NCBI GenBank assembly: GCA_964558555.1
Contig: CAZLEO010000008.1
Coordinates: 61-64,060 of the forward strand
From: an uncultured Rickettsiales bacterium
GTDB taxonomy: Bacteria; Myxococcota_A; UBA796; UBA9615; CAYRNR01
DNA: 64,000 nucleotides
Direction: 5' to 3'
Below are positions 15,108 through 63,442 of this stretch, in pieces. Within the stretch, counting starts at the first letter, position 1; each line of letters begins with the position of its first letter. The translations under genes and the position numbers were made by a program. Under the pieces are notes generated by a model that was given only the letters and a program-made list of their open reading frames with translations, did not search any database and was not told the DNA's origin.

Positions 15108-15112
15108 GCCGC

Positions 15113-15748
15113 TCACCGGGTCTCCCACACGAAGGACGTGCCGTGGCCCAGCTGGGCCAGCCGGGCTTTCAGCTCGGCCTTGAGCTTGCGCCGGCAGCGC
15201 TGGAGCAGGCCGCGCGCGCCGGACGCGGTGGTCAGCCCGAGCAGGTCCGTGATCCGGTCCTGGGGCATCTGTTCGACGTAGCGCAGATACACCGCCTCTT
15301 GCTCCTGCTCCTCCAGCACGGCGGCAGCGGCGCTCCTGAGCAGCTCTTCGCGCTCTTGCCGCCCAAGAGCCGAGAGCGCCCCCTTCTCGTCGGAGGTCGG
15401 GTCGAGCAGACCGTCGACGGAAAGCAGGTCCTGCTTGCGCCGGAAAGCGCCATAGCAAACCCTCTTGGCGATGCCGTACAGCCACGTGCTGAAGGCGGAG
15501 TCCCCCCGGAACGTCGGGAGCCTGCGCCAGGCGGTCAGCAACGTCTCCTGGGCCAGGTCGCGCGCCTTCTCGGGGTCGCCGGCGAAGCGGTAGCAGATGG
15601 CGTAGACGCGGTCCTGATGGCGGGCGAAGAGCTGCTCGAGGTCGGCGGAGAGGGATGCAGAGGCGGACCCCTCGCCCTGCGCAACGAGCCGCACGCGCTT
15701 CAGCAGCGCCTCCTCGTCGCGAGCCTTGCGGTCCCCTGGCCTGTTCAT
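15113..15748 (-). CDS. ECF (sigma-70 family) RNA polymerase sigma factor.
   Basis: Region 2 (YAICYRFAGDPEKARDLAQETLLTAWRRL) and region 4 (EAVYLRYVEQMPQDRITDLLGLT). Confidence 0.85.
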   Translation of the reverse strand: MNRPGDRKARDEEALLKRVRLVAQGEGSASASLSADLEQLFARHQDRVYAICYRFAGDPEKARDLAQETLLTAWRRLPTFRGDSAFSTWLYGIAKRVCYGAFRRKQDLLSVDGLLDPTSDEKGALSALGRQEREELLRSAAAAVLEEQEQEAVYLRYVEQMPQDRITDLLGLTTASGARGLLQRCRRKLKAELKARLAQLGHGTSFVWETR

Positions 15749-15930
15749 GGCGATCCCTGCCCCACTCTCGAGCGCCTCGCCGCGAGCCTAGCACAGCCTC
15801 GGCGCCCCGCGAATGTACGCGCGAGGATGCCATCGCCCACGTGACGGCCACGACGGGTACAATCTGTGGTTGAGTGCCCGGATTGATGCGGCACCGGGGG
15901 CCGAAGCATCGTCCTGGCAAAGGAGGGAAC

Positions 15931-17211
15931 GTGAGACGCTCGATCCGACGCTCTGCGGTGTTGCGGCCGGCTCGACTCCTGATCGCCCTCGCGGTGCTGG
16001 GGACGGGCGGCACTGCCGCGGCCGGAGAGGCGTGCGGCATCTTCGAGCTGGCTGCCAGCGGCTCCAAGGCGACCAAGAACGTGGTGGTGAACCTGACCTC
16101 GCTGCTGGCCTCCGAGGTGGAGGCCACCGGCAAGTGCAGCTCCATCGCCATGTTCGCCGCAGAGGACTTCGAGCAGGGCTGCGGCGCGGACCCCGCGTGC
16201 GTGACGGAGTTCGCCGAGTACGACGAGCTGGACCTGATGATCACCGGCACGGTGCGGTTCGAGGCCGACGGGACACGGGTCAAGCTGCGGCTGCTGGATG
16301 CGGCCAGGGGCCGGTTCGTCAGCACCCTCGAGCGCGAGGCCGAGGGCGATCCCGACCGCCTCATGGAGCGCATGGCCGAGTTCGCGGCCGATCTGATGAG
16401 GGACCAGCGGGCCGTCGTGGTGGCAGAGGAGCCGAGCGAGCTGGACCTGATCGGCGACCTGGATCTGGTGGACGACCTCGACGACCCAGGCAGCGCCGAG
16501 GACGACTCCATCGTGGTGGAAGCCGAGGGGGCGGACTGGGAGGACGTGCCCATCGACGAGGTGGTCCGGCCCGTGGAGGAGGGGCCCATCGAGCTGGAGG
16601 TGTCGACCCTCGAGGAACGTGAGCGGATTGCCGTGGAGGAGGGGGATCTCGCCGACGCCGAGGACATGCCAGGGGCCTCCACCCTGCTCGGTCATGACTC
16701 CACGGGCCCCGAGCTGCTGTTCCGCATCGATCCCCGCCTGGGCATCAAGGCCTTTGGCGGGGTCGCGTTCTGGCAGGAGCCACACGGCGAGTTCGGGCTG
16801 GACTTCTCCATACACGTCAAGCCCCAGGCCTTCTTCGATGTGGAGGTCGGCACCTGGATCGGCACCAAGCATCAGCCGGGCAGCGATGACCTGTGGACCT
16901 ACGCGCTGTTGCCGTTCTCCATCGGGTTCGGCGCCAAGGGGCAGCGGCTGCCCCTGGTCCATCCCTACGTGGTCGGGGCGGCGATGGGTATCGTGTACTT
17001 CGTCAGCCCCAACAACGGCCTTCCCCAGCTGGCCTTCGGTGGCTGCGTCAAGGGCGGCATCGACCTGATGATCAAGCAGCGTTTCGGTCTGTTCGTCGAG
17101 GGGAGCGTCGGCGGGGTCTACGCGGGACACATCACGTCCGTGGTGGACGAGGACTACTGGCCGGGGCACGTCGTGTTGTCGCTGAACACCGGCGTGATCC
17201 TGCAGTTGTGA
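15931..17211 (+). CDS. Secreted hypothetical protein. The C-terminal part is beta-rich and may be an outer-membrane barrel.
   Basis: AGGAGGG then a GTG start. Signal peptide RRSAVLRPARLLIALAVLGTGGTAAAG. Acidic linker. Alternating hydrophobic beta strands at the C-terminus. Confidence 0.5.
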   Translation: MRRSIRRSAVLRPARLLIALAVLGTGGTAAAGEACGIFELAASGSKATKNVVVNLTSLLASEVEATGKCSSIAMFAAEDFEQGCGADPACVTEFAEYDELDLMITGTVRFEADGTRVKLRLLDAARGRFVSTLEREAEGDPDRLMERMAEFAADLMRDQRAVVVAEEPSELDLIGDLDLVDDLDDPGSAEDDSIVVEAEGADWEDVPIDEVVRPVEEGPIELEVSTLEERERIAVEEGDLADAEDMPGASTLLGHDSTGPELLFRIDPRLGIKAFGGVAFWQEPHGEFGLDFSIHVKPQAFFDVEVGTWIGTKHQPGSDDLWTYALLPFSIGFGAKGQRLPLVHPYVVGAAMGIVYFVSPNNGLPQLAFGGCVKGGIDLMIKQRFGLFVEGSVGGVYAGHITSVVDEDYWPGHVVLSLNTGVILQL

Positions 17212-22234: not shown

Positions 22235-23587
22235 CTAGTCCACGCAGCGCAACCAAACGTTGTACTGGTCGTCGTTGCCGTAGACGACCCAGGCGCGTCC
22301 CTCGTCGTCCACCGTCACGTCGGAGAACAGCCAGTCCTGAGAGTCCAGCGTCCAGGTGTCGTATTGACCAGCTCGAAAGTCGTCCTCGATGTAGTACGCG
22401 ACGTCGTTGTCGTGGACGTAGGTGAAGTGACCCAGTTCGCCTTCCGAGAAGGCGGCCCCGCCCAGCCAGGAGAACCCGTTGTAGGGGAGGGTGGGGAAGG
22501 TCGAGCTGGAGGACCAGCTGTCGTTGTCGCACCAGTTGCGCTTGACCACGGCGTCCTCCTCCCAGCTGTCCTGGTGGTGGTAGAGCACGTAGGGCTCACC
22601 GCCGTACCTCGATCCTGCCCCGACGAAACCGCTGGGGTCCGAGTCGATCACCTGGGTGGACGTGAAGGAGGCGTCGGACACGTCGAACACTCGGCTGACG
22701 ATGCCGTCGGGGTCGTTGACGATGAGGACGAGTTCGTCGTTGGACCTGCATGAAAGGGCGAGGTCGCTGATCGAGTCGGCCTCGTAGAAGTAGCCATCCC
22801 AGTCACCGTTGTCCGGGACGTAGAAGTGGAGCGTATCGTTCGCGACCCAGCCGACGAACGGCTGGTCCGCCGGGCCGGGTGAGCAGATATCGAGGCCGTC
22901 CACGTAGTAGCTGGACTCGTTCACCCACTCGTCGTAGGCCCAGCTCGTCTCCGAGGTGTTCGTCGGGTAGATCCACAGGATGCGGTTGGAGTACGCGTAG
23001 GTGAGGATGTGGGGGGTTCCGCTGGCATCCAGCCACAGCTTCATGCTGTCGCCGGTGTGGACGTGCCCTTCGGGAACGGTGTCCACGTCGTCGAGCAGGT
23101 CGAGCGACTCGTCGAAGGTGCGATAGGCGATGTGATCGTCCTCTGTGGTCTGACCGCCGTAGCTCCAGGCGAAGGCGGTCTTCAACAGCCGGTCCTCCTC
23201 GTCGAAGAGGATGTCCACGACGGCGGTCTCCTGCCCTCCCGCGTTGAACGAGGCGATGAGCCCTTCGTCGTTGTCCCCGTCGGCGCAGTCCTCGTCCACC
23301 CCGTTGCAGGGGATCTCCGTTGCCCCGGGGTGGATGTTGGGGTTGCTGTCGTTGCAGTCGCCACCGGCTTCGGTCCAGCCGTCCCCGTCGGCGTCCGTGA
23401 CGGCATCGTCGTCGTCGCCGACCTGGTCGTCGTCGTCGCCGACCTGGTCGTCGTCGTCGTCAGAGACGAAGTCGTCGTCGTCCCCCTTCGTGTCGTCGTC
23501 GTCCCCGAGAGGGACAGGGGCGCAGCTGGCCAACAGCATGGAGGATGCGGTGAACAGTGAGATCCAGATGGGCGCACGTGTGAACAT
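22235..23587 (-). CDS. Lipoprotein with a poly-Asp linker and a MopE-type putative metal-binding motif.
   Basis: Lipobox MLLASC. DDDDTKGDDDDFVSDDDDDQVGDDDD linker. DGDGW..GGDCNDSNPNIHPGATEIPCNGVDEDC motif. Confidence 0.6.
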   Translation of the reverse strand: MFTRAPIWISLFTASSMLLASCAPVPLGDDDDTKGDDDDFVSDDDDDQVGDDDDQVGDDDDAVTDADGDGWTEAGGDCNDSNPNIHPGATEIPCNGVDEDCADGDNDEGLIASFNAGGQETAVVDILFDEEDRLLKTAFAWSYGGQTTEDDHIAYRTFDESLDLLDDVDTVPEGHVHTGDSMKLWLDASGTPHILTYAYSNRILWIYPTNTSETSWAYDEWVNESSYYVDGLDICSPGPADQPFVGWVANDTLHFYVPDNGDWDGYFYEADSISDLALSCRSNDELVLIVNDPDGIVSRVFDVSDASFTSTQVIDSDPSGFVGAGSRYGGEPYVLYHHQDSWEEDAVVKRNWCDNDSWSSSSTFPTLPYNGFSWLGGAAFSEGELGHFTYVHDNDVAYYIEDDFRAGQYDTWTLDSQDWLFSDVTVDDEGRAWVVYGNDDQYNVWLRCVD

Positions 23588-23714: not shown

Positions 23715-23801
23715 TCAGCCGCCGGCCGGCGCGCAGACCATCGGGTTGATCACGAACACGTACAGCGCCGCGAGGGCGATCAGGCCGGCGAGGCCGGCCA
23801 T
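23715..23801 (-). CDS. Candidate 28-aa hydrophobic small protein (MAGLAGLIALAALYVFVINPMVCAPAGG).
   Basis: The ATG is 18 nt downstream of the ICMT stop. GAAGGAG lies 12 nt upstream. One predicted TM helix. Confidence 0.3.
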   Translation of the reverse strand: MAGLAGLIALAALYVFVINPMVCAPAGG

Positions 23802-23818
23802 GTAGAGGCCGAACTCCT

Positions 23819-24418
23819 TCACTTGCGGCTCCTCTCGGCGAAGTAGCGTCGGAAGCGGCTGAACCTGGGGATGAACATCGGCACCTCCTTGCGGTAGCGC
23901 TCGTAGGCCTCGCCCAGGTTCTGCAGGCAGTAACGCTCCTGGATGGCGACGTTGGTGATGTACGAGTACAGCAGCAGGATGGGGATGAAGATCGCCAGGA
24001 ATGCCAGCGACCGCATCAGGAAGCCCAGACCGATCACGCCGATGAGCTTGCCGATCACGGAGGGGTGGCGGATCCAGGAGTAGATGCCGGTGTCGACGAG
24101 GTTGGTGGTGTAGCCCATGTGGGAGCCGGGGCTGCCGGCGCCCTTGAGGTAGAGGTAGCCGTAGGAGTACCACACGACAAAGCCGCCGAGGGCCCAGCAG
24201 CCGGCGCAGATCACCACGTTCCAGGGCAAGCCCACGGTGGGGGCCCAGCCCCAGGACTGGTCCAGGCGCTGGGCGAACCACGCCAGCAAGGTGGCCGCGG
24301 GCACGAGCACGAAGACGTGGACCGCCATGTTGCCGTACAGCTCCTTGTGGCGGAGCGTGGCGAAGATCTCCCAGACAGTGGGTTCGCGGTCCACGGGCTG
24401 TGGGGATTCGTTGGTCAT
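23819..24418 (-). CDS. Membrane methyltransferase of the ICMT / phospholipid methyltransferase family (SrsB-like).
   Basis: Five TM helices. The C-terminal EYERYRKEVPMFIPR motif is typical of isoprenylcysteine carboxyl methyltransferase-family enzymes. Confidence 0.7.
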   Translation of the reverse strand: MTNESPQPVDREPTVWEIFATLRHKELYGNMAVHVFVLVPAATLLAWFAQRLDQSWGWAPTVGLPWNVVICAGCWALGGFVVWYSYGYLYLKGAGSPGSHMGYTTNLVDTGIYSWIRHPSVIGKLIGVIGLGFLMRSLAFLAIFIPILLLYSYITNVAIQERYCLQNLGEAYERYRKEVPMFIPRFSRFRRYFAERSRK

Positions 24419-24428
24419 GAATGGGACA

Positions 24429-25880
24429 CTATATCTTAGATTGACCGGCCTTTAGCAGCTCCATGCGGCCGAGCTGGAACCCGCCGAGCAGCACGTTCTT
24501 GAGCTCGGCGCGGGTGCGGATCTTGGAAAACGTCCGCGCCAGCGTGCGCGGATGGAAGTAGAAGGCCCGGTTGACCTTCTTGAACAGCTCGAGCAGTTCC
24601 TCCTTGGACAGGTGCTCCTCCCAGGCGGTGGGCAGGTCGTAGCCCTCGTCCGGATCGAGCATGAACCGTTCCCAGCAGTCCGCCGGCCACAGCCCCTTGT
24701 CGGTGCCCTCGGCGAAGATGGGGGCGTCGGGGTAGGGGGTGAACAGGGAGTACACGACGTAGTCGGGGGCCAGGTCGTGCATGAACGGGATCACGTCGAG
24801 GATCTGCTGGGCGTTCTCCTCGTGGGGGTTGCCCATGATCATGTAGGCGATGGCCTTGACCCCCTCGGACTGGGTCATGCGGAAGATGTCCTTGATCTCC
24901 GCCACCGTGGCCTTCTTGTTGAGCGCCTTGAGGCCGTGGTCGGTGAAGGTCTCCACCCCGTAGTGCATGCGGTAGCAGCCGGCGCGCTTGGCCAGCTTGA
25001 CCATCTCGCGGGTGGTCTGGCGGATGGACGCCTTGTACCCCCACCAGATCTTGAGGTTGCGCTGCAGGATCAGCTCGCTGATGGCCATGACCCGCTCGGG
25101 CGAGGCGTTGAACAGGTCGTCGACGAAGTGGATGTCCTGGATGCCGTGGCGGTGCACGCACTCGGCCATCTCGTCCACCACGCGCTCGGGGCTGTGGGGG
25201 CGGTAGGCGTGGGGCACGTTGCAGAACACGCAGCGGTGGGGGCAGCCGCGCGAGGACATCATGGTGGTGGTGTGGGCGCCGCGCATGCCCGGGGTGTAGT
25301 ACCTGCCCGGGGGGAAGAAGTCGCGGTCGGGGAAGGGCAGGGTGTCCAGGTCGTGGGTGGGGTCGCCCTTCTCGCCCTGGTAGACGCTGCCGTCCTCGCG
25401 CTGGATGACGATGGAGGGCACCGTGTCGATGTCGCCGCCCTCCTCGAGGGTGTCCAGCAGCTGCACCAGCGGCTTCTCGCCGTCGCCCTGGATGCACGCG
25501 TCCACGCCGCGCAGCCGCGCGCCGATCTCCGGGAACGAGGTGACGTGGGCGCCGCCCATGACCACGAACACGTCGGGCAGCACGCGCTTCACCGCGTCGA
25601 TGCAGCGGGCCACGTTGATGAGGTTGTGCGAGGCCGTGGCCGACACGCCCACCACGTCGGGGCGGACGCGGGCCGCGTGGGCCTCGATGTCGCCAAAGCT
25701 CATGTCCTCGACCACGCAGTCCAGGGTGTGGACCTCGTGATGGGAGTGCTCCTTGAGCCACGCCGACAGGCTCATCACGGCCAGGGGTGGGAACAGGTAG
25801 GCGTACTTGTCGTTGAACACCGACGGCACGCCCGCCCACACCTGGTAGGTCTTGGGGGGATGGATCAGCAGGATGCGCAC
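24429..25880 (-). CDS. B12-binding radical SAM enzyme.
   Basis: N-terminal cobalamin-binding Rossmann region (RILLIHPP...). CPHRCVFC radical SAM cluster motif. A GTG start at 25880 is preferred over the ATG at 25940, which would overlap the upstream gene by 76 nt. Confidence 0.75.
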   Translation of the reverse strand: MRILLIHPPKTYQVWAGVPSVFNDKYAYLFPPLAVMSLSAWLKEHSHHEVHTLDCVVEDMSFGDIEAHAARVRPDVVGVSATASHNLINVARCIDAVKRVLPDVFVVMGGAHVTSFPEIGARLRGVDACIQGDGEKPLVQLLDTLEEGGDIDTVPSIVIQREDGSVYQGEKGDPTHDLDTLPFPDRDFFPPGRYYTPGMRGAHTTTMMSSRGCPHRCVFCNVPHAYRPHSPERVVDEMAECVHRHGIQDIHFVDDLFNASPERVMAISELILQRNLKIWWGYKASIRQTTREMVKLAKRAGCYRMHYGVETFTDHGLKALNKKATVAEIKDIFRMTQSEGVKAIAYMIMGNPHEENAQQILDVIPFMHDLAPDYVVYSLFTPYPDAPIFAEGTDKGLWPADCWERFMLDPDEGYDLPTAWEEHLSKEELLELFKKVNRAFYFHPRTLARTFSKIRTRAELKNVLLGGFQLGRMELLKAGQSKI

Positions 25881-26578
25881 GGTTCGCTCTTTCTCGCGGG
25901 GTGGTTGACCCGCTCGCACCGGACCAGGTCCAGGTGCCACACCAGCATGGGCTTGCCGTAGAAACGGAAGCGGCCGGCGCGCTCGAAGCCCCAGGAGGTC
26001 AGCTGGCGCACGGCGCCGGCGTTGTCCTCCTCGGTGGTGATCTTGACGTGATCGTGGCCGCGCGCGGCCAGCTCGTCGAAGAGCACCTTGTTGATCAGCC
26101 CGGCCACCTTTTTACCCCGCAATCCCGGCTCGAACGAACAAAACATGGACTCCGCCTTCACGTCGGGGCCCTCGTCGGTCCGCGTGAGGGTGTGGTAGCG
26201 GAAGGTCTCGGCCAGGGGCAGGGCCGCGCCGGGGCGCCCCACGAGGCCGCGCGCGGTGGACAGGGCCAGGGCCGGAGCGTGACGCGTGAACGTCTCGCGT
26301 AGCATGCGCGGTCCGTCCTCCGTCCCCGCGATGAACCCCTGCACGCGCCCGTCGTCCACGAAGACCCAGGCCAGGAAGTCGGGGTGCTCCAGCAGGGCCT
26401 TGTAGATACGCGCGAGGAACCGCGGCCCCAGCTGGGCCCACAAGGAGTGACCCATGGCCGCGGTGTGCAGGCGGACCACCCCGGGGACGTGGGCCCGGTT
26501 CATCCGGTGGATGCGGGCCCGCACCTCGGGGTCGACGGGGAAGGGCGCGAGGCGCCCGTTCGGGGACGGCTCGGCCAA
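25865..26578 (-). CDS. GNAT-family N-acetyltransferase.
   Basis: Acetyl-CoA-binding motif (AARGHDHVKITTEEDNAGAVRQLTSWGFE). TTG start, 2 nt after the crotonase stop. Confidence 0.65.
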   Translation of the reverse strand: MAEPSPNGRLAPFPVDPEVRARIHRMNRAHVPGVVRLHTAAMGHSLWAQLGPRFLARIYKALLEHPDFLAWVFVDDGRVQGFIAGTEDGPRMLRETFTRHAPALALSTARGLVGRPGAALPLAETFRYHTLTRTDEGPDVKAESMFCSFEPGLRGKKVAGLINKVLFDELAARGHDHVKITTEEDNAGAVRQLTSWGFERAGRFRFYGKPMLVWHLDLVRCERVNHPARKSEPCASC

Positions 26579-26580
26579 GC

Positions 26581-27351
<771 letters not shown>

Positions 27352-27370
27352 GGAATCCTCCCCAGAGGGG

Positions 27371-28435
27371 TTACCAGCGAAGCAGGCCGGTCTCGATGGA
27401 GATGCCCGGGCCCATGGCGATGGTCACGCCGTAGTCCCCGGCGTGCACCACGTCCTCGTGCTTGAGCTCCTGGAAGGAGAACAGGAACGCGCCCGACGAC
27501 AGGTTGCCGTAGTCGCGCAGGATGGACTTGGTGTGGCGCACGTCGTGCTCGGTCAGGCCAAGGTTGTACTTGATGGCGTCGATGACCTTCTTGCCGCCGG
27601 AGTGGATGATCCAGTGGCGGATGTCGCGCTGTTTGAGGCCGTTGTCCTTCAGCAGCTTGCCCACCGGGGTGTTGATGGTCTCGCCGATGAGGTAGGGGAT
27701 GTCGCGGCCGAGGTAGAAGCTGAACTTGCCCTCCTCGAAGTCGAACCGCATCTCGGCCATGGCGTGGGCGACCATGATCGACTCGAAGCCCAGCACCTGG
27801 GGGCCCTCCGCCGCGGTGAGCTCGTCGCCCGACACCAGCAGCACGGCCGCCGCGCCGTCGCCGAACAGGGAGTTGACCACGCCGGTGCGCACGGTCATGT
27901 CGAACACGTAGGCCGCCGAACACACCTCGCAGGTCAGCAGCAGGGCCGGCTTGCCCGGGTTGGCTGCGGCGAACGAGGTGGTGGCCATCAGGCCGTTCAT
28001 GCCGCCGTTGCAGCCCATGCCCACCAGGTCGATGCGGTGGACGTTGTCGCGCATGCCCGAGTCGCGGGCGATCATGGCCGACAGGCCGGGGCACAGGAAG
28101 CCGGTGGAGGTGACCACGGCGAAGAACTCGATGTCCTCGGGGCCGTAGGGGCTGTCCTTGAGGCACCGCTCGACCGCCTCGCAGCCGATGGTGATGGAGA
28201 CGTCGGTGTGCTTGCCCAGCAGCTCCTCGCCGCTCTCGTCGGGCATGATCCCGTCCTCGCCGGGATCGGGCAGCACCAGGTGGCGGGTCTTGATGTGGGA
28301 GTTGGTGAAGAACCGCCGGATGATCTTCACCTCGCACTGGAACAGGTCGAGCAGCTCGGCCTGCGTGTAGCGGCGCGGCGGGTTGGCGGTGCCCACCGAC
28401 AGGATTCGGGGAGCGAGCGGGCGTTCCATGGCCAT
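27371..28435 (-). CDS. Type III polyketide synthase (chalcone/stilbene synthase superfamily).
   Basis: Cys-His-Asn catalytic triad contexts (GMGCNGG, IHSGGKKV, GNLSSG). GAGAGG Shine-Dalgarno sequence. Confidence 0.85.
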   Translation of the reverse strand: MAMERPLAPRILSVGTANPPRRYTQAELLDLFQCEVKIIRRFFTNSHIKTRHLVLPDPGEDGIMPDESGEELLGKHTDVSITIGCEAVERCLKDSPYGPEDIEFFAVVTSTGFLCPGLSAMIARDSGMRDNVHRIDLVGMGCNGGMNGLMATTSFAAANPGKPALLLTCEVCSAAYVFDMTVRTGVVNSLFGDGAAAVLLVSGDELTAAEGPQVLGFESIMVAHAMAEMRFDFEEGKFSFYLGRDIPYLIGETINTPVGKLLKDNGLKQRDIRHWIIHSGGKKVIDAIKYNLGLTEHDVRHTKSILRDYGNLSSGAFLFSFQELKHEDVVHAGDYGVTIAMGPGISIETGLLRW

Positions 28436-28653
28436 GGTCCTACCTCTCGTCGGGCGGCTCGCGAGCGTCGGAGCGCAGCCCAGGCATTCTCTATAGCCTA
28501 GGTTCGTCCATCGCCAGGAGGAATGCCGCGCCCGAGTCGCCGCATTATAGCATCAGGGTTCCGGGTCGCCCCCCCCTCGAAAGCCAGCGATATCGCTGGC
28601 TTGACATCGGTAGGGGTGGTCTCTACGGTGCCGGAGGAAGAACGGAGCACACC
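28436..28653. promoter_or_regulatory. Divergent intergenic control region. A perfect 20-bp palindrome AGCCAGCGATATCGCTGGCT (28582-28601) abuts a sigma70-like -35 TTGACA (28601-28606). A TACGGT -10 follows at 17-nt spacing.
   Basis: Read directly from the sequence. The predicted transcription start is ~18 nt upstream of the PP-loop gene ATG at 28654. Confidence 0.5.
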
Positions 28654-29427
28654 ATGGCCCCCAAGCCCGATCGAAGCGACGGCGACCGCAGGATGGCCCT
28701 GTTGTTCTCCGGTGGCCTGGACACCACGCTGGAGGTGGTCGAGCGGCTCAAGGAGTACGACGCCGTCGATCTACTCACCTTCGACAACGGCTACTGCATC
28801 AACATGCGCGGCGCGCGCCGGCGCGTGCGCGAGCTGCGCGACCTGCTGGGTCCAGACCGCATCCACCACGTGGAGGTCGAGACCAAGGAGCTCATCGACA
28901 TCCTGCTGCGCGACGGCGACCAGCTGTGGCGCGAGTACCGATCCCCGCTGATCTTCGACATGGCCTGCAAGGTGTCCTCCGTCACCGAGCTCATCTACTA
29001 CGCCCGCACCCACGGCATCACCGATCTGAGCGACGGCGCCGCGCTGGAGCAGACCGAGATCTTCTTGCAGCACCGCGACTTCTCCGCCGAGGTCAAGCCG
29101 TACCTGGAGAGCTACGGGCTGGTCTACCGCGAGGCCATCCAGTACGAGTGGTCCCGCGACGAGAAGCAGCGGATGATCGAGCAGCAGGGCCTGAGCTCCG
29201 GCGTGCCCTTGCTCGAGAAGTTCTCCATCGGCAGCCACATCGCCCACCAGCCGTTCTGCCTGCGCGGCGCCGTCACCTTCTTCTTCACCTCGCCGACCCG
29301 CCACCTCGGTCCGGTCAAGCGCTACGCCCTGCCCATGAACCGCGCCATCGCCCTGTGGAAGCGGCTGCTGCCCACGGCGAAGGACTACCTGGACGAGCGG
29401 TTGCGGGGGGCGGGGATCGAGGTCTAG
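28654..29427 (+). CDS. PP-loop ATP pyrophosphatase superfamily protein (QueC/ExsB-like).
   Basis: LFSGGLDTT PP-loop (SGGxDS-like). LLTFDNGYC resembles QueC's ITFDYGQRH. The QueC C-terminal Zn-Cys motif is absent. Confidence 0.55.
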   Translation: MAPKPDRSDGDRRMALLFSGGLDTTLEVVERLKEYDAVDLLTFDNGYCINMRGARRRVRELRDLLGPDRIHHVEVETKELIDILLRDGDQLWREYRSPLIFDMACKVSSVTELIYYARTHGITDLSDGAALEQTEIFLQHRDFSAEVKPYLESYGLVYREAIQYEWSRDEKQRMIEQQGLSSGVPLLEKFSIGSHIAHQPFCLRGAVTFFFTSPTRHLGPVKRYALPMNRAIALWKRLLPTAKDYLDERLRGAGIEV

Positions 29428-29458: not shown

Positions 29459-29965
29459 CTACTCGGCCTTCTTCGGCGCGGCCTCTGCGGCCGGCGGCGC
29501 GCTATCGCCGGCGGGCTTGTCGCCTTCGGCCTTCTCGCCTTCCGCGGGCGGCGCGGCCTCCTCGCCCTCCTTCTTCTCGGGCGCGGGGGCGGCCTCGGGC
29601 AGATCCAGGGCGGCGGCCCAGGTGATGAGCTCGTCGGTGGCGCCGGCCTTCTTGAGCATCTCCTTCTCGGCGTCGGTCAGTCCGGTGGCGCCTCCGAGCT
29701 GGTCGTTCTCGACGCCCTCGGTGGCCTTGGCGCGGATCTGCTCCTCGGTCAGGCCGATCTCGATCCACTCGGCGATGTGGCTCGCCAGGGCCCGCGGGGG
29801 ATCGGGGGCCGTGTTGGCGTCGGCGGACTTCGTGTTGTCGGCCGGCGGCGGCGTCCAGGCGGCGTCCGTCGGCTTGTCCGAGGCGTTCGTGGGCGCGGCG
29901 GGTCGGCAGGCGGGGAGCATCAGGGCCAGGACGATCACCGTGATCGCGAGGGTGTGGATCTTCAT
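29459..29965 (-). CDS. Ala/Pro/Glu-rich lipoprotein, hypothetical.
   Basis: Lipobox LALMLPAC. Low-complexity C-terminus. Confidence 0.5.
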   Translation of the reverse strand: MKIHTLAITVIVLALMLPACRPAAPTNASDKPTDAAWTPPPADNTKSADANTAPDPPRALASHIAEWIEIGLTEEQIRAKATEGVENDQLGGATGLTDAEKEMLKKAGATDELITWAAALDLPEAAPAPEKKEGEEAAPPAEGEKAEGDKPAGDSAPPAAEAAPKKAE

Positions 29966-30115
29966 GGGGGACATCTCCAGGTCGTCGCGCCGGTTCGCCC
30001 GGCGGCGTGTGCGCAGATGTTACCGATGGGTTTCGAAGGCGGTCAAGGCGCGCGTGTGCGGCGCGCGTGTGCCGGCGTCCTTGTGCGTGGGCGCGGACGG
30101 GGCAATAGTAGGGCC

Positions 30116-31357
30116 ATGCGTGGACTCCCGATTGCAGGTGTGTGTGTGGCGGTGTCGCTGGCCGGGCTGGCGGCCGCGCCCGGTTGTGGCGGCGATCAGA
30201 CGGTGGACCCGGACGCGGCGCGCCTCGCCGCGATCGAGCAGGAGGCGCGGGAGCGCAAGGACGACGGTGCGCCGCCCTTGAGGCCCCTCGATACGCCGAT
30301 CCTCAACGCCCACCCGGCCGGCGAGGGGTGCACGGCGCACGAGAGCATGACCATCCTGCTGGACGGCGACCAGATCGCCGATCCGCATTACCACAGCGAC
30401 GGCCAGCAGCCCTCGGTGGTGATCGGTCTGACCGACCACGACGGCGTCAGCGGCGTGCTGGTGGAGGATCTGGGCGACTACGCCCCGGCCATGGACTACA
30501 ACCTCGACGCCTGGCTGACCCGCTGGCGCATCGAGGAGACGACCTACCCGCGCCGGGCCCTGCTGATCTCCCACCCCCACACCATCGGCCGGATGATCCT
30601 GCCGGGGAAGATCACCCAGCCCGTGGAGGAAGGCCCAGCGGTCATCGACGAGACCCTGCGGCGGCTGGGTCACGCGTCCCTGACGAGTCCCAACTTCCAG
30701 AACCTGTGCGACGAGGCGCGGCGCGATCCCAACTGGCCGGTGGCGCCGGTATGCGAGCGGCCGGTCCACGACCTCGAGACCGGGCTGGAGCCGCTGGTGT
30801 GGGGGGACGGCACGAAGTCCGGGCGGGTGTTCCTGTACACCTATGCCATCGCGCCGGAGGAGCTGGACAAGATCCCGTTCCAGCCGCTGGAGACCGTACT
30901 GATCGTCCAGGCGGACCCCGGCTACCTGGTGTACAGCGTGTGCTCGCACCTGCCCAACCACCCCGACGAGGGGCACGTCGCGCCGTTCCACGTGGCCTAC
31001 GAGATCAAGGCGCTGATGGATGCGGGCAAGCTCGAGCCGGGCCCCATCCACACCGTGGTCACCGGCACCTGCGGAGTGCTGCGCACCTTTGACATGCAAG
31101 GCGGCAAGACCGAGCAGGGGGTGTTCGACACGCCGGGCTTCCAGAGCCGCGTCCAGCAGATGCGTGACGACCTGGGCATCCAGCGGCTGTTCCTGAGCCA
31201 CTGCGCCCTGCGGCGCACCTCCCAGCACTCCCTGCGGCCCTTCTACGAGGTGTTCCGCGAGGGGGTCCAGCTGGCCTACCCGGGGGCGTGTATTCCGCTA
31301 TCACCCCCCGCGGCGGTCCCCCAGGCCGAGGCGCCGACCGACCATCCCGCCCACTGA
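30116..31357 (+). CDS. Hypothetical lipoprotein (413 aa).
   Basis: MRGLPIAGVCVAVSLAGLAAAPGCGG. No recognisable domain. Confidence 0.5.
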   Translation: MRGLPIAGVCVAVSLAGLAAAPGCGGDQTVDPDAARLAAIEQEARERKDDGAPPLRPLDTPILNAHPAGEGCTAHESMTILLDGDQIADPHYHSDGQQPSVVIGLTDHDGVSGVLVEDLGDYAPAMDYNLDAWLTRWRIEETTYPRRALLISHPHTIGRMILPGKITQPVEEGPAVIDETLRRLGHASLTSPNFQNLCDEARRDPNWPVAPVCERPVHDLETGLEPLVWGDGTKSGRVFLYTYAIAPEELDKIPFQPLETVLIVQADPGYLVYSVCSHLPNHPDEGHVAPFHVAYEIKALMDAGKLEPGPIHTVVTGTCGVLRTFDMQGGKTEQGVFDTPGFQSRVQQMRDDLGIQRLFLSHCALRRTSQHSLRPFYEVFREGVQLAYPGACIPLSPPAAVPQAEAPTDHPAH

Positions 31358-31399: not shown

Positions 31400-32617
31400 A
31401 TGTCCGTAGCGAGGTTCCGGCCCTCCCTGTCCCTGCGCGAGGCCGCGCACTTCGTGGGCGCCGGCCTGCCCGGCAAGCCGGCGCTGACGCGTGAGTTCGA
31501 GCGGGCCTTCGGCCGGGAGGTGCTGGGCAACCGCACCGTGATCCTGGCGCCGTCGGGCCGCATCGCCCTGTACTGGATCCTCGAGGCCCTGGACATGGGC
31601 CCTGGCGACGAGGTGGTCACCCAGGCGTTCAACTTCACCGCCGTGCCCGCGGCCATCGAGGCGGCCGGGGCGAAGCCGGTGTTCGTGGACGTGGCCCGGG
31701 ACGGGTTCGGCCCGGACCCGCGCAAGCTCGCCGAGGTGGTGGGGCCGCGCACGCGCGCCGTCCTGTTGACCCACCTGTACGGCAACCCCGCCGACGTGGG
31801 CGGCGTCAGCGCGGTGTGCGAGGAGCACGGCATCCCCCTGATCGAGGACTGCGCCCAGGCCGTGGGCGCCACGTACGAGGGGCGCACGCTGGGCACCTTC
31901 GGGCTGGCCACGTTCTTCACCTTCGGCCCCACCAAGAACTTCACGCTGCTCGGCGGCGGGGCCGTGGCCACCGCCGATCCGGAGATGGGTCAGCGCATGG
32001 CCGAGCTGGCGCGCCGCCACCGCCGCGTGGGGGCCCGCAAGTCCCTGCGCATGGCCGCCATGGCGGCGGTGATCACCGCGGCGACGAGCCCGCTGCCGTT
32101 CCAGCTGGCCACCTTCCCCGCCATCCGCCTGCTCAGCGCGCGCGGTGGCGATCCGGTGCACAAGGTCATGGCCGAGCCCGACAGCCCCCTGCGGGACGTG
32201 GAGGCCTACCGGGCTCCATCGGGGGCCATGGCCGCGGTGGGTATGGCCCAGCTCAAGCGCTACGTGGAGCTCAACCGCGCCCGCGAGCGCAATGGCTGGG
32301 AGCTGTACGACCGGCTGCGGCAGGTGGACGGCATCACCGTGCCGTTGTCCCGCGAGGGCAACATCTTCCTGAGCTTCCCGGTGTTCCACCCGCGGCGGAA
32401 GGCCTTTGCCGCGGCCCTGCGGAGTCGGGGCGTGGACACGGACCTGGGGTTCATGTGTGACTGCGCGTCCCACCCCATGTTCCCCGACGCGGCCGCCGAC
32501 TGCCCGGAGTCGATCCGGGCCGCGGACGAGATCGTGCACCTGCCGGTCCATCCGTACCTGGGCCAGCGCGGTCGCGACCGCATCGTCGAGGCCGCGAAGG
32601 AGGCCGCGAGCGTTTGA
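31400..32617 (+). CDS. DegT/DnrJ/EryC1/StrS-family PLP-dependent aminotransferase.
   Basis: Family motifs DCAQAVGATYEG and FSFGPTKNF-like (TFGPTKNFT). Confidence 0.8.
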   Translation: MSVARFRPSLSLREAAHFVGAGLPGKPALTREFERAFGREVLGNRTVILAPSGRIALYWILEALDMGPGDEVVTQAFNFTAVPAAIEAAGAKPVFVDVARDGFGPDPRKLAEVVGPRTRAVLLTHLYGNPADVGGVSAVCEEHGIPLIEDCAQAVGATYEGRTLGTFGLATFFTFGPTKNFTLLGGGAVATADPEMGQRMAELARRHRRVGARKSLRMAAMAAVITAATSPLPFQLATFPAIRLLSARGGDPVHKVMAEPDSPLRDVEAYRAPSGAMAAVGMAQLKRYVELNRARERNGWELYDRLRQVDGITVPLSREGNIFLSFPVFHPRRKAFAAALRSRGVDTDLGFMCDCASHPMFPDAAADCPESIRAADEIVHLPVHPYLGQRGRDRIVEAAKEAASV

Positions 32618-35600
32618 TCCACGAGGTCCCGGCTCAGCGGTCTCGGTGGCCTGGCCTCGCGGCCGCGGGGCTGGCCCTCGCCCTGCTGGCCGTCCCCGGC
32701 GTCGGCCGCGCCACCCTCACCGACCTGCCGCGGGACTTCGAGCTGTCCGAGGTGGCCTGGGGCGGCCTCGGCGGCGGCGAGGCGCGGACCGACTGCGGTG
32801 AGCTGCGCCATCACCCGGTGATCCTCGTCCACGGCGATGGCGAGGGGCCCGAGGCGTGGATCGCAGGGGAGGACGGCGGCGCGGTCGGCGCGCTGCGCGC
32901 GGCCGGGTTCGGTCCGTGCGAGGTGTGGGCCCTGCGGGTGGGCGAGGCGGGCAAGCCCATGCGCTCGCTGGAGGAGCTCACCGACGACGTCAAGGTCTTC
33001 ATGTACGCGGTGCTGTCGTACACCGGCGCGCCGCGGGTACAGATCGTGGCCGACGACGAGGGAGCCGTGCTCGTCCACGCCACCCTGGTCAAGTACGGCC
33101 TGCACAACCTCGTGCACGCCCTGGTCTACCTGGACGCGCCCTTCGGCGGCGAGCCGGGCTGCAACGACGACCGCTGCTTTGCCGGCGAGGTGATGTGCTG
33201 CACCCTGCGCCGGAAGTCCGGCTTCCTCGACCGTACGTTGCTGCCCGTGGAGACCCCCCACGCCCTCTCGGCGGTGCCGGACGGCAGGCGGACCGGCCAC
33301 ATCCGGTACCTGACCGCGGGCCCCACCCCGGCGGTGGCGCTGAAGGACCGCACCGACGTCCACGGCGGCTGGATGCTCGACGGCGCCTGGAACCTGTCCT
33401 ACCCCGGGCTGGCCGCGAAGCCGGCGCACCACGTGCCGGAGCTCTGGGGTGTGATCGTGCGGACCCTGTCCGACCCGGCGGCGGCGTGCCAGCGCGCCGA
33501 CGACGCGGACGGGGACGGATACTGCGCCACGGCCGCGGGCGGCAACGACTGCGACGACGCGAACCCGGCGATCTACCCGGGCGCGCCCGAGGTGCAGGCC
33601 GACGGCATCGACCAGGACTGCAACCTCCACGATCTGGACCGCAGCATCGTCGGCTGGAAGTGCGAGCGACCCCTCGGCGATCCGGTGGGCCCCACCGTGC
33701 TGGGCCCGCGGGCGACGACGACCGAGGAGGAGGACGGGGACTGGAGCTGGCAGGAGTGGGTGGTCGTGGCCGCCCTGTCGGCGTTGCTGCTGCCCATCGG
33801 GTGGGTGGCGTACGGCGCGTTCGGGCGGCGCTGGTTCAAGCGGATGCGGCGCCGGGCGCGGCGCGGGGCCCTGTCGGCGCCGGCCGCTGACGAGGAACCC
33901 GTCGCCGAGGAGACCCCGGATCGTCCGTGGCGCGCGAGGTTGCTCGAAGGGGCGGTCGTGGCCGCCGTGTTCGCTGCGGTCGTCACCGCGGCCCTGTTCA
34001 CCCGCGGGTTCGATCCGGCGCTGCACTACGTGGGCGGCAACTACGAGTTCGTGGGCTGGAACCTGGTGGACTGGAACGTCCACTACTGGTCCATGTGGGA
34101 CTTCCGTCACGTCTACCTGGGCCTGGACAACCCCCTGCGCTCGGTGCACGAGTTCTACCCCGAGGGCCTGCTCACGGTGACCGTGCGCGGCGACCTGGCG
34201 ATGATGGCCATCGCCGGGGTGGTGGGCCTGTTCTGCTCCCCGGACACCACCTACCTGCTCATGCTGGTGTTCATCCTCGCCGGCAACGGCCTGGGGGGCT
34301 TCGTGCTGGTGCGCACCCTCACCGGCAGCCGCCTGGCCGGCCTGGCCGTGGGGGTGGTCTTCTGCTTCGCCGGGGTCACGTCCTGGGCCCTGAACACGGG
34401 CAACCTCGAGTACGGCCTGTGGTTGTGGATCTGCCTGTACTTCGCCGCGCTGGTGCAGGTGCTGCGCCACGGGGGCCGCAAGCGCGCGGTGATCGCGGGG
34501 GTGTTCGGGCTGCTGGCCATCTACTCGAACTTCCTGTTCATCTACCACCTCGCCGGGGTCAGCGCGGTGCTCCTGGCCTTCCGGGCGCGCCAGCTGGACA
34601 CCCGCCGCTGGATCTCCCTGGGCGTGCTGGTGGCCACGATCCTGTCGCTGCTGCTGCCGTTCGCCATCTACTTCCGCTACGAGGGCAAGGACCAGGGGCA
34701 GGTCCTGCTGCCCAACGCCGACGAACTCAGCGACGACCAGGGCACGGGTCAGATGCGTCGCAACAACAGCTACGCCCTGTCCGACTACCTGCCGTGGAAG
34801 CGCGGCTACACCCGCGAGCACGGCGAGTACCTGCACTTCGACCGCAACGACGCCGACACGTACTACCTGCTGTTCGCGGCGGTGGTGCTGGGGCTGATCG
34901 TGGCGCCGCGGCGCAGCCTGCCGTGGCTGGTGGCCGGTGGTGTGTTCCTGTCGCTGTCCCTGGGGCCGGACTGGACGATCGGGACGGCCGAGGACCCGAC
35001 GCGCGTGCCGCTGCCGTACACCCTGGCGGTGCGGATCGTGCCGCTGTTCTACCGCATCTACTTCCCCCACCGGATCTTCACCTTCGCCATGATCTGCGCC
35101 GGCGTGGTCATGGGCTACGCCATCGCGTGGCTGCTGCAGCGGGCCGGCCGGCCCGGGTCGATCCGGCTGTCCGGCGGCAAGCAGCGCATGCGCGTCGGCG
35201 GGCGGCGCATGCGCACCCTGGTGGGGATCGCCGTGGTCTTCGCGGTGTTCATGGAGCTGCACGGTGCGTGGGGCATCCGCACCTTCTGGAAGCACGAGGT
35301 GCACCCCTTCTACCAGCAGCTGGGCGAGGACCACGAGCAGTACGCCATGGTGGTGTTCCCCATGGACTACGGCGTGTTCGACGCGCGCTACCTGTACTTC
35401 CAGACCGTGCACCACAAGCCGCTGTTCAACGGCACGGTGCCCCGTTACTTCGGCATCTACGGCATCCCCAACTACGAGATGCTCGAGGAGAACTCGATCC
35501 TGCGGCGGGCCTACCAGCTGCAGATGGAGCACATGCCGCGCACGGTCACCGCGGCCATGATCGAGATCGGCGGCGCCTCGTTCGCCCTGGACCGGCCCAC

Positions 35601-35811
35601 CCTCGACCAGGGCATCATCGACCTGCTGCGCGAGGGCTTCCGCTACGTGGTCCTGCACCGCCGGGTGGTGTGGGACTCGGGGCTGAGCTTCGAGATGCCC
35701 CGGGACACCGAGCTGGAGCTGTTCCTCGTGGACGCCCTGGGCAAGCCCGCGTACGAGGACGCCGAGATCGTCGTGTTCGACCTGCGCGCCACCGGAAGGA
35801 CCGGAAATTGA
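32614..35811 (+). CDS. Large fusion protein. Signal peptide, alpha/beta-hydrolase (lipase-like) domain, MopE metal-binding motif, then a ~700-aa polytopic membrane domain.
   Basis: ILVHGDGEG lipase-type motif. DADGDGYCATAAGGNDCDDANPAIYPGAPE motif. More than 12 predicted TM helices. 4-nt overlap with the aminotransferase gene. Confidence 0.55.
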   Translation: MIHEVPAQRSRWPGLAAAGLALALLAVPGVGRATLTDLPRDFELSEVAWGGLGGGEARTDCGELRHHPVILVHGDGEGPEAWIAGEDGGAVGALRAAGFGPCEVWALRVGEAGKPMRSLEELTDDVKVFMYAVLSYTGAPRVQIVADDEGAVLVHATLVKYGLHNLVHALVYLDAPFGGEPGCNDDRCFAGEVMCCTLRRKSGFLDRTLLPVETPHALSAVPDGRRTGHIRYLTAGPTPAVALKDRTDVHGGWMLDGAWNLSYPGLAAKPAHHVPELWGVIVRTLSDPAAACQRADDADGDGYCATAAGGNDCDDANPAIYPGAPEVQADGIDQDCNLHDLDRSIVGWKCERPLGDPVGPTVLGPRATTTEEEDGDWSWQEWVVVAALSALLLPIGWVAYGAFGRRWFKRMRRRARRGALSAPAADEEPVAEETPDRPWRARLLEGAVVAAVFAAVVTAALFTRGFDPALHYVGGNYEFVGWNLVDWNVHYWSMWDFRHVYLGLDNPLRSVHEFYPEGLLTVTVRGDLAMMAIAGVVGLFCSPDTTYLLMLVFILAGNGLGGFVLVRTLTGSRLAGLAVGVVFCFAGVTSWALNTGNLEYGLWLWICLYFAALVQVLRHGGRKRAVIAGVFGLLAIYSNFLFIYHLAGVSAVLLAFRARQLDTRRWISLGVLVATILSLLLPFAIYFRYEGKDQGQVLLPNADELSDDQGTGQMRRNNSYALSDYLPWKRGYTREHGEYLHFDRNDADTYYLLFAAVVLGLIVAPRRSLPWLVAGGVFLSLSLGPDWTIGTAEDPTRVPLPYTLAVRIVPLFYRIYFPHRIFTFAMICAGVVMGYAIAWLLQRAGRPGSIRLSGGKQRMRVGGRRMRTLVGIAVVFAVFMELHGAWGIRTFWKHEVHPFYQQLGEDHEQYAMVVFPMDYGVFDARYLYFQTVHHKPLFNGTVPRYFGIYGIPNYEMLEENSILRRAYQLQMEHMPRTVTAAMIEIGGASFALDRPTLDQGIIDLLREGFRYVVLHRRVVWDSGLSFEMPRDTELELFLVDALGKPAYEDAEIVVFDLRATGRTGN

Positions 35812-45877: not shown

Positions 45878-46161
45878 TCGTCTGCCCCAGGCTGCTCGGC
45901 GGATTCAGCGGCGTCGGGCGGTGTCATCGCCGGCGACCGCGACGGTCGGGCCACGAAGCGCCGCTTCTGGCCGGCGGGCCGCCTTGGGCTGTGGTCGGTC
46001 CCCTCGAGGATCAGGTTGCTCTTGAGGTCGTCCGTGACGCGCTTCGCCTCGGACATGGTTCGGAACAGGGTGCGGGCCACCTGCGGGAGCTTGTCGGGGC
46101 CGACGAACACCAGGACCAGCACGAGGATCACGGCGATCTCGGTGAAGCCTATGCTGGGCAT
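45874..46161 (-). CDS. tatA: Twin-arginine translocase TatA/TatB-family protein.
   Basis: GFTEIAVILVLVLVFVGPDKLPQVAR. GGAGG Shine-Dalgarno sequence. 4-nt overlap with tatC. Confidence 0.85.
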   Translation of the reverse strand: MPSIGFTEIAVILVLVLVFVGPDKLPQVARTLFRTMSEAKRVTDDLKSNLILEGTDHSPRRPAGQKRRFVARPSRSPAMTPPDAAESAEQPGADE

Positions 46162-63429: not shown

Positions 63430-63442
63430 GATGCTTCTCCTT

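Follow-up and report, generated by a model that had tools for sequence, protein, structure and literature searches.

DpgA is the 3,5-dihydroxyphenylacetyl-coenzyme A (DPA-CoA) synthase, and its defining reaction is the formation of DPA-CoA from four malonyl-CoA. In glycopeptide, pheganomycin/resorcinomycin-type, and kendomycin-type clusters of actinomycetes, DpgA, DpgB, DpgC, and DpgD lead to 3,5-dihydroxyphenylglycine (Dpg), and DpgC oxidizes DPA-CoA towards this amino acid; a rate-enhancing effect is reported for DpgB and DpgD. SrsA/SrsB of Streptomyces and BpsA/BpsB of Bacillus represent operons that combine a type III polyketide synthase (PKS) with an ICMT-family methyltransferase, and CysS/Fom3/GenK-type enzymes are cobalamin-dependent radical S-adenosylmethionine (SAM) C-methyltransferases of natural-product pathways. 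Here we analyzed a gene cluster in a 64,000-nucleotide stretch of contig CAZLEO010000008.1 (positions 61 to 64,060) from an uncultured bacterium; this whole stretch is called the window, and coordinates given without a locus name refer to it. Five tightly packed minus-strand genes encode a type III PKS, a crotonase, a GNAT-fold protein, a cobalamin-dependent (B12) radical SAM enzyme, and a PEMT/ICMT-type methyltransferase. A 35-codon membrane micro-open reading frame (micro-ORF) follows the methyltransferase gene as the sixth minus-strand gene, and a PP-loop gene diverges upstream on the plus strand. We put at about even chances the reading that the six genes form an operon whose ancient core makes and spends DPA-CoA, with tailoring following in the sublineage of the window.

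The GC content of the window is ca. 70%, and mechanical ORF lists were full of shadow ORFs. Real genes were separated from shadow ORFs by a third-position GC (GC3) filter, which left one clear gene per stretch; GC3 was 0.93–0.97 for every gene of the cluster. The gene calls of the Joint Genome Institute (JGI) on a matching metagenome contig were identical to ours, the micro-ORF included, and the same gene order was found again in independent contigs with 53–84% amino acid identity. The gene cluster is thus confirmed as real and as kept in many uncultured bacteria.

An earlier sequence-only reading of this stretch had named six genes (the five packed genes and the PP-loop gene), and all six are present according to Pfam, motifs, fold, and the JGI calls. 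The co-directional tight packing that it described for five genes is borne out by the coordinates. Its spacing of 2–20 nt agrees with three of the junctions; in order from the PKS gene, these are gaps of 19 nt and 2 nt, an overlap, and a gap of 10 nt, but the GNAT and radical SAM genes overlap by 16 nt. The left bound at 23715 marks the end of the micro-ORF and not that of the methyltransferase gene, which lies at 23819; the start of the micro-ORF and the stop of the methyltransferase gene overlap by 4 nt. Junctions that are overlapping or so short speak for a single operon, and thus against the lack of co-transcription that the sequence-only reading had named as part of what would refute it.

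The PKS and the conserved core

The PKS gene (27371–28435, minus strand) encodes a 354-aa protein with the Pfam domains Chal_sti_synt_N and Chal_sti_synt_C. This protein scored 457.4 bits against the DpgA equivalog model of NCBIfam (NF042429; cutoff, 425), matching profile positions 1–350 of 350, while FabH-type NCBIfam models scored 78 bits or less. Its best relative of solved structure by sequence was Mycobacterium Pks11 (154 bits), whose catalytic Cys, His, and Asn motifs line up with GCNGG, HSGG, and GNLSS of the window PKS. When 72,556 plasmid records were searched with the PKS by tblastn, identity was 50–52% to annotated dpgA genes of Streptomyces and to the Nonomuraea gerenzanensis locus, and fell abruptly to about 31% or less for all other type III PKSs in the collection. 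Taking the search and the identity table together, the PKS is 49–52% identical to the DpgAs of the actinomycetes Streptomyces decoyicus, Streptomyces sp. NBC_00597, and Nonomuraea gerenzanensis and 27–31% identical to other type III PKSs.

Two annotated dpgA-dpgB-dpgC operons and the unannotated Nonomuraea gerenzanensis locus were used as references. Operons of Stenotrophomonas (L101) and Phyllobacterium (L102), in which a type III PKS gene is directly followed by an ICMT gene, served for comparison; their PKSs are ca. 27% identical to that of the window. In a neighbor-joining tree, built without bootstrap support and with a small outgroup sample, one clade united the DpgAs of actinomycetes with the window PKS and its relatives from the environment, and the L101 and L102 PKSs fell outside it. 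Some environmental relatives are 57–58% identical to the Nonomuraea DpgA and are thus closer to it than the window PKS. Because the equivalog cutoff is passed and both the identity to DpgAs and the tree agree, there is strong homology support for placing the PKS in the DpgA clade, predicted to be of the small-aromatic type, and not among the alkylresorcinol synthases. The sequence-only reading had named a grouping of the PKS with non-lipid type III PKSs as an outcome that would speak against it, and the PKS does cluster with the non-lipid DpgAs.

The Streptomyces decoyicus locus (plasmid NZ_CP108348.1, 125183–142223; L016) carries dpgA-dpgB-dpgC beside genes for a glycine amidinotransferase, a PGM1-like peptide ligase, a P450, and a methyltransferase. 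We take this cluster to resemble pheganomycin/resorcinomycin-type clusters; it served solely as a DpgA/B/C reference. Prediction of starter size from the equivalent of position 197 of chalcone synthase (CHS) was dropped: by eye on the Pks11 alignment, this residue is Tyr both in the window PKS and in Pks11, a long-chain enzyme.

The crotonase gene (26581–27351, minus strand) encodes a 256-aa protein (ECHb; ECH_1, 133 bits). Within dpg operons its best match by tblastn was DpgB (40% identity over 171 aa), followed by DpgD. The crotonase and DpgB share the motifs RWE..ERL and, at the C terminus, S-[YF]-E-[DE]-x-x-G-x-x-L-A-A, both of which are missing from DpgD. Because it reached 119.7 bits against the DpgB model of NCBIfam, short of the cutoff of 140, we call the protein DpgB-like and not DpgB. 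It looks like an aromatization partner of the PKS, judging from these motifs and matches, and not like the tailoring enzyme that it had been taken for. A second crotonase gene is located just upstream of the PKS gene in related loci L009, L011, and L014, with Nonomuraea DpgD as the best match (36% identity, 124 bits). By homology, the DpgD-like, PKS, and DpgB-like genes of these relatives reproduce the dpgD/A/B set; the window has no DpgD-like gene.

No full-length DpgC homologue was found in the window or in ca. 95 related loci. An HpgT-type aminotransferase had no match in the window, and no nonribosomal peptide synthetase (NRPS) was found among the scanned genes of the window. With DpgC missing from the window and these loci, and an HpgT-type aminotransferase and an NRPS missing from the window, no route to the amino acid Dpg is apparent, and the canonical Dpg pathway was rejected.

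The third gene (25865–26578, minus strand) encodes a 237-aa protein of an unannotated family, which we assigned as a GNAT-fold acyl-CoA acyltransferase by AF2 and Foldseek. Its match to the Pfam GNAT family (17.6 bits) is below the cutoff of 20.7. The AF2 model had a predicted local distance difference test (pLDDT) score of 90.6 and matched dozens of GNAT structures at a Foldseek probability of 1.0; the nearest solved structures were the N-acetyltransferases BAR/PAT, RimI, puromycin N-acetyltransferase, and SpeG. An exhaustive profile search with the GNAT yielded 805 representative proteins at E ≤ 1e-10, and the remote relatives that were scanned pass the Pfam GNAT (Acetyltransf_1) thresholds. 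None of 451 homologues bears a name beyond the generic label "RimI-like". An alignment of 40 homologues showed an invariant E143-S-x-F-C147-S-F followed by R154-G..G160; the latter comes after strand 4 and is a CoA-binding-like motif. An insertion of ca. 40 residues (helices 89–131) and the invariant Cys147 are both missing in acetyltransferases of 145–195 aa.

Using the GNAT as an anchor, we collected 80 metagenome loci, 46 of which had at least 2 kb of upstream sequence and 47 of which had downstream sequence. The crotonase and PKS genes were located directly upstream of the GNAT gene on the same strand in 40 of the 46 informative loci, and three of the six exceptions keep both near the GNAT gene with insertions. 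The contiguous co-directional PKS–crotonase–GNAT triad was also found in L001, L009, L011, L013, L014, and L018, and the match lists of the PKS and GNAT point to shared contigs. PKS–crotonase–GNAT is therefore the invariant core across ca. 95 related loci, and the GNAT is a part of it, not an insertion between the PKS and methyltransferase genes as had been described. The hosts of the relatives are uncultured non-actinomycetes, namely metagenome-assembled genomes (MAGs) labeled Acidobacteriota, Myxococcota, Alphaproteobacteria, Rokubacteria, and Verrucomicrobiota. In actinomycete operons dpgB is followed by dpgC, and here the crotonase gene is followed by the GNAT gene. Given that DpgA forms a CoA thioester and that GNATs transfer acyl groups from acyl-CoA, this arrangement is most simply read as one in which the GNAT would consume DPA-CoA.

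Most metagenome loci are of a kind that we call type B, in which the triad has unrelated neighbors. In type B loci such as L044, L054, L055, L063, L071, L075, L086, and L091, a gene pair is located divergently upstream of the PKS gene. One member encodes an acidic, helical-repeat-looking protein of ca. 640 aa (17 loci); the other, seen in 11 loci, encodes a protein of ca. 496 aa that has the HD-type motif ALFHDMGY. Near the pair there is often a gene for 240 aa that, by eye, looks Bpt/arginyltransferase-like because of a CxxCxxC-type motif. These upstream genes may be regulators or mere lineage synteny. On one contig (Ga0233425_10001786; L015 and L043), a first block carries PKS, crotonase, PP-loop, and B12 radical SAM genes, and a second block ca. 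18 kb off on the other strand carries a DpgD-like crotonase gene, a GNAT gene, a DegT gene, and a second PP-loop homologue.

The radical SAM enzyme, the membrane methyltransferase, and the micro-ORF

The radical SAM gene (24429–25880, minus strand) encodes a 483-aa cobalamin-dependent (class B) enzyme of an orphan subfamily. It has an N-terminal B12-binding domain (PF02310, 75.5 bits) and a Radical_SAM domain (PF04055, 70.9 bits), and its CPHRCVFC fits the CxxxCxxC motif. The best NCBIfam matches were BchE (153 bits), a ladderane-type B12 radical SAM (138 bits), a C-methyltransferase of peptides made by the ribosome and modified after translation (RiPPs) (126 bits), and HpnJ (126 bits), and every match was far under its cutoff. 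AprD4, TokK, TsrM, and OxsB were weak sequence relatives in the PDB. No other B12 radical SAM paralogue or other cluster gene was found in the window by tblastn.

The methyltransferase gene (23819–24418, minus strand) encodes a 199-aa integral membrane protein of the PEMT/ICMT superfamily, with scores of 32.2 bits for PEMT (cutoff, 25) and 24.5 bits for ICMT (cutoff, 24). Its weak NCBIfam matches, LmtA, isoprenylcysteine methyltransferase, and MddA, were all far below cutoff, and its match to an ICMT in the PDB had E = 4e-4. BLASTP found no similarity (E > 3) between it and the ICMT partners in L101 and L102; those two partners share 36% identity.

The 35-codon micro-ORF (VKEFGLYMAGLAGLIALAALYVFVINPMVCAPAGG; 23715–23822, minus strand) has a single transmembrane helix. 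JGI called it independently, also on L011/L012, and a homologous micro-ORF directly follows the methyltransferase gene in six independent loci, namely the window, L001 (12056–12163), L003 (6502–6579), L004 (9137–9244), L009 (14910–15002), and L011 (14565–14663). No homologue was found away from a methyltransferase gene in the related loci examined. The micro-ORFs are 25–35 codons long and hydrophobic and have the conserved start M/V-K-E-F-G-L-Y-M-x-G-L; a 4-nt overlap with the methyltransferase stop is frequent, and most copies have a Cys near the C terminus. From this conservation, we take the product to be a likely partner of the methyltransferase in the membrane, either a subunit or an anchor. 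A role as RiPP precursor for the radical SAM enzyme was judged unlikely, given that the product is a hydrophobic single transmembrane helix and that the micro-ORF tracks the methyltransferase gene and not the radical SAM gene.

In each of the seven loci for which the context was sufficient (the window, L001, L004/L013, L009, L011, L018, and L019), an orthologue of the radical SAM enzyme (64–84% identity) was found 11 kb or less from the triad. Among the 47 metagenome loci with downstream sequence, the orthologue was directly next to the GNAT gene in one, and the triad occurred without the radical SAM and methyltransferase genes in dozens of loci. The radical SAM gene, the methyltransferase gene, and the micro-ORF are an add-on of one sublineage. 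The triad occurs alone but the radical SAM orthologue only near the triad, and the junctions overlap both in the window and in L011 (by 4 nt in the latter); this is no proof but would be expected if the add-on were a tailoring module dependent on the product of the triad.

Large clusters surround the module in several relatives: L009 (1–9155 and 14999–21062), L011 (204–7268 and 16173–19856), L014 (12060–20073), L015 (10806–16283), L019 (964–10951), and L003 (3–10554). They contain three to seven B12 radical SAM paralogues, an HpnH-like radical SAM enzyme, a 336-aa radical SAM enzyme, a DUF3604 protein, a phytoene-desaturase-like flavoprotein, and a homologue of Tes/GDGT-MAS, the archaeal tetraether synthase (PMC9433317; PMC13459092). 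The last of these has a Zn_ribbon_HMPTM domain and matches 7TOL with 114 bits. These clusters look like lipid-modification clusters; their extra genes (the paralogues, Tes, and the flavoprotein) are absent from the window.

The PP-loop gene, the DegT gene, and flanking genes

The divergent PP-loop gene (28654–29427, plus strand) encodes a 257-aa protein of the adenine-nucleotide alpha-hydrolase type with no Pfam match above threshold. The PP-loop motif SGGLDT is at residues 19–24, and S19, G20, G21, and D23 are invariant. The AF2 model (pLDDT, 83.4) gave Erwinia YcfA as the best Foldseek match (E = 1e-11; template modeling [TM] scores, 0.74/0.86; 17–18% identity), and QueC, argininosuccinate synthase, and TtuA were much weaker matches. 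An assignment as QueC was rejected, as the sole match was a 32-residue P-loop stretch with E = 0.03 and the fold search points to YcfA. In the 6-thioguanine pathway of Erwinia, YcfA adenylates a carbonyl and adds cysteine, and cleavage of the adduct by a pyridoxal phosphate (PLP)-dependent lyase yields a thioamide (PMC12494993).

The PP-loop family is small, comprising 49 homologues, and these share contigs with the PKS family. The gene is in the cluster of L001, L013, L014, L015, and L043, and L009 has a distant copy. Three cysteines (C48, C105, and C202) are invariant in the family, which hints at metal or Fe-S binding or persulfide chemistry.

Further downstream, a DegT/DnrJ-family PLP aminotransferase of 405 aa is encoded at 31400–32617 on the plus strand (Pfam DegT_DnrJ_EryC1, 226 bits). 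The DegT gene adjoins the PP-loop or radical SAM gene in L001, L002, L005, L013, L014, and L043. The best PDB relatives of the protein are WbpE, scyllo-inositol transaminase, and ArnB. A role as YcfC-like C–S lyase partner was rejected, since these relatives are sugar and inosose aminotransferases, and the idea of a thioamide product stays speculative for the same reason. No YcfC-like gene was found among the called neighbors. From its relatives, the DegT protein would more plausibly make an amine acceptor than act as a C–S lyase.

Between the PP-loop and DegT genes, a predicted lipoprotein of 171 aa is encoded at 29459–29974 on the minus strand and another of 403 aa at 30146–31357 on the plus strand. 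They are 41% and 48% identical, respectively, to syntenic ORFs of L001, and a Pfam scan found no family for either. In L014, a gene of the same size (171 aa) is located beside the PP-loop gene. Predicted secreted proteins or lipoproteins with long Asp-rich linkers and MopE-type metal-binding motifs are encoded on either side of the cluster (22235–23587, minus strand, and 32614–35811, plus strand), and MopE/FG-GAP proteins of a similar kind flank related loci. Elsewhere in the window, a 2391-aa protein encoded at 9507–16682 (minus strand) combines a Ser/Thr kinase domain, a STAND NTPase domain (nSTAND1), and multiple WD40 propellers. A respiratory-looking block (46149–51923, 53179–55800, and 60553–63624, minus strand) encodes a MoaC–MobB fusion, a membrane subunit of the NrfD type, and molybdopterin oxidoreductases, together with an NHL-repeat protein of 873 aa that has multiheme cytochrome c domains.

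Proposed pathway, alternative explanations, and known systems

In the proposed pathway, the DpgA-clade PKS would condense malonyl-CoA to DPA-CoA, with the DpgB-like crotonase assisting dehydration and aromatization, as in glycopeptide Dpg biosynthesis. The GNAT, and not DpgC, would then take DPA-CoA as acyl donor and transfer the dihydroxyphenylacetyl group to an acceptor, probably an amine; we propose this step because of the fold, the operon position, and the strict co-conservation of the GNAT. One candidate acceptor is an amino-sugar or aminocyclitol from the neighboring DegT aminotransferase. In the sublineage of the window, the cobalamin-dependent radical SAM enzyme may modify the product, most likely by C-methylation of an unactivated carbon. 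The membrane methyltransferase, together with the micro-protein, may methylate a phenol hydroxyl or another O or S nucleophile; if this methyltransferase acts at that step, the mature product would be membrane-associated. Least certain is the part played by the PP-loop enzyme, which probably activates a carbonyl of the acceptor or product by adenylation, preparing it for amidation or thiolation. On a broader and more tentative view, the triad may define a class of metabolites, so far unrecognized and widespread among uncultured bacteria, in which DPA-CoA as the direct GNAT donor gives dihydroxyphenylacetyl amides or esters. In the lineage of the window, these would be C-methylated by the radical SAM enzyme and methylated at the membrane with the micro-protein as a subunit, and YcfA-like activation or thiolation might be added; since relatives carry the module within large clusters of B12 radical SAM and Tes-homologue genes, the product might be a head-group or membrane-anchored component of a bacterial lipid system.

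Several points weigh against the operon with a core that makes and spends DPA-CoA. Membership of the DpgA clade at ca. 50% identity is no proof of the same product. Not all B12 radical SAM enzymes are methyltransferases, and BchE, OxsB, and AprD4 are among the matches of the cluster enzyme. The promoters presumably lie in the 218 bp (28436–28653) that separate the PKS operon from the divergent PP-loop gene; a scan found no match to a sigma-70 consensus there and identified neither a promoter nor a terminator. The arrangement in relatives also separates the module from the triad. Inserts at 7362–10000 of L001 split the GNAT from the radical SAM gene and so break the operon seen in the window, and the triad and the radical SAM module are ca. 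11 kb apart in L004/L013. The radical SAM and methyltransferase genes are set among three to seven B12 radical SAM paralogues in L003, L004, and L019, and the clusters of L009, L011, and L014 are flanked by further paralogues, the phytoene-desaturase-like flavoprotein gene, and the Tes/GDGT-MAS homologue. Thus, the radical SAM enzyme and methyltransferase could belong to a lipid pathway and not to the PKS. The L001 inserts comprise an ArsC/LMW-phosphatase-like gene, a gene for a secreted protein of 577 aa with FG-GAP repeats, and a small ORF on the opposite strand.

These arrangements are what would be expected if two independent units were neighbors, one being the triad pathway and the other a membrane-lipid-modifying pathway of the radical SAM enzyme, methyltransferase, and micro-ORF, of the kind suggested by the B12 radical SAM- and Tes-rich clusters of relatives. 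The occurrence of the triad alone in most loci, with the orthologue directly downstream in only 1 of 47, points the same way. However, the junctions look translationally coupled in the window and L011, the radical SAM orthologue is never away from the triad in the seven loci where the context is known, and the window has no other nearby B12 radical SAM, Tes, or lipid gene with which the pair could work. We regard two independent units as a somewhat unlikely explanation.

The proposed pathway further depends on the donor of the GNAT; acetyltransferases are the closest solved structures, so that acetyl-CoA may be the donor instead. The GNAT would then be an ordinary acetyl-CoA acetyltransferase serving acceptor acetylation or self-protection, and DPA-CoA would be hydrolyzed or used by another enzyme; the JGI label "RimI-like" on some family members fits this as well. 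Yet a thioesterase, DpgC, or any other enzyme that would consume DPA-CoA is missing from the core, the GNAT is besides the crotonase the only gene invariably linked to the PKS and holds the slot of dpgC, and its insertion and invariant Cys147 set it apart from small acetyltransferases. An ordinary acetyltransferase is therefore unlikely in our view.

The sequence-only reading had taken the locus for an alkylresorcinol/alkylpyrone methyl-ether pathway of the SrsAB/BpsAB type with extra tailoring. This would explain why one operon encodes both a type III PKS and a methyltransferase of the PEMT/ICMT superfamily, the membrane methyltransferase and its transmembrane micro-protein suggest a hydrophobic substrate, and the best solved relative of the PKS, Pks11, is a long-chain alkylpyrone synthase, though at 154 bits. 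The PKS clade, the methyltransferase subfamily, and the role of the crotonase all disagree with it: the PKS resembles DpgAs far more than ICMT-linked PKSs and passes the DpgA equivalog cutoff, the methyltransferase has no pairwise likeness to the ICMT partners and is separated from the PKS gene by three genes, the crotonase resembles DpgB, and no fatty-acyl-AMP ligase or acyl carrier protein was found among the called neighbors. Judged on these homologies, that interpretation appears to have been mostly wrong, and such a pathway is improbable. Canonical supply of Dpg for a nonribosomal peptide encoded elsewhere in the genome would explain the DpgA- and DpgB-like genes and is the most improbable of all, given the lack of DpgC in the window and the related loci and of an HpgT-type match and NRPS in the window.

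What we retain from the earlier reading is the idea of an undescribed tailored resorcinol-type product; no such system was found in the searchable literature. There, we found no description of a cluster of type III PKS, crotonase, GNAT, and B12 radical SAM genes or of the use of DPA-CoA by an acyltransferase, and DPA-CoA appeared solely as the precursor of Dpg (vancomycin-class antibiotics) and as the kendomycin starter unit, all in actinomycetes. Here, the same PKS–crotonase chemistry is predicted in MAGs that bear the labels of five other phyla, and another enzyme follows it. If the proposed pathway is true, DPA-CoA would have a second fate in metabolism, and its small aromatic conjugates would form a new family. 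An orphan B12 radical SAM enzyme would gain a small polyketide-derived candidate substrate, and the cluster also supplies a membrane methyltransferase along with a conserved micro-protein as its likely partner. In relatives, the cluster is physically linked to homologues of tetraether synthase. At ca. 2.6 kb, the triad would be cheap to test by heterologous expression.

Among known systems, the PP-loop protein shares with YcfA–YcfC of the Erwinia amylovora 6-thioguanine pathway (PMC12494993) the fold, the SGGxD[ST] motif, and a conserved PLP-enzyme neighbor. In contrast, the identity to YcfA is low, the PLP neighbor is a DegT sugar aminotransferase and not a cysteine-desulfurase-like C–S lyase, three cysteines are invariant here, and there is no guanine-nucleotide context. 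The radical SAM enzyme has the N-terminal B12-binding domain and CxxxCxxC core of the B12 radical SAM C-methyltransferases and a weak sequence relation to TokK and TsrM; unlike them, it is under every curated cutoff, and BchE, HpnJ, and ladderane-type models score equally well.

As in SrsAB and BpsAB, a type III PKS and a PEMT/ICMT-superfamily methyltransferase are encoded in one operon, and O-methylation of a resorcinol is plausibly common to both. The PKS clade and methyltransferase subfamily differ, as judged via L101 and L102 and not via SrsA and BpsA themselves; the two genes are not adjacent here, the crotonase and GNAT belong to the core, and malonyl-only chemistry is predicted instead of a fatty-acyl starter. 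The closest likeness in the core is to the dpg pathway, with a DpgA-clade PKS followed by a DpgB-like crotonase, relatives that add a DpgD-like crotonase, and DPA-CoA as the predicted intermediate. The cluster departs from that pathway in lacking DpgC in all loci examined and, in the window, an HpgT-type transaminase and NRPS; the GNAT takes the place of dpgC, tailoring is by a B12 radical SAM enzyme and a membrane methyltransferase, and the hosts are non-actinomycetes.

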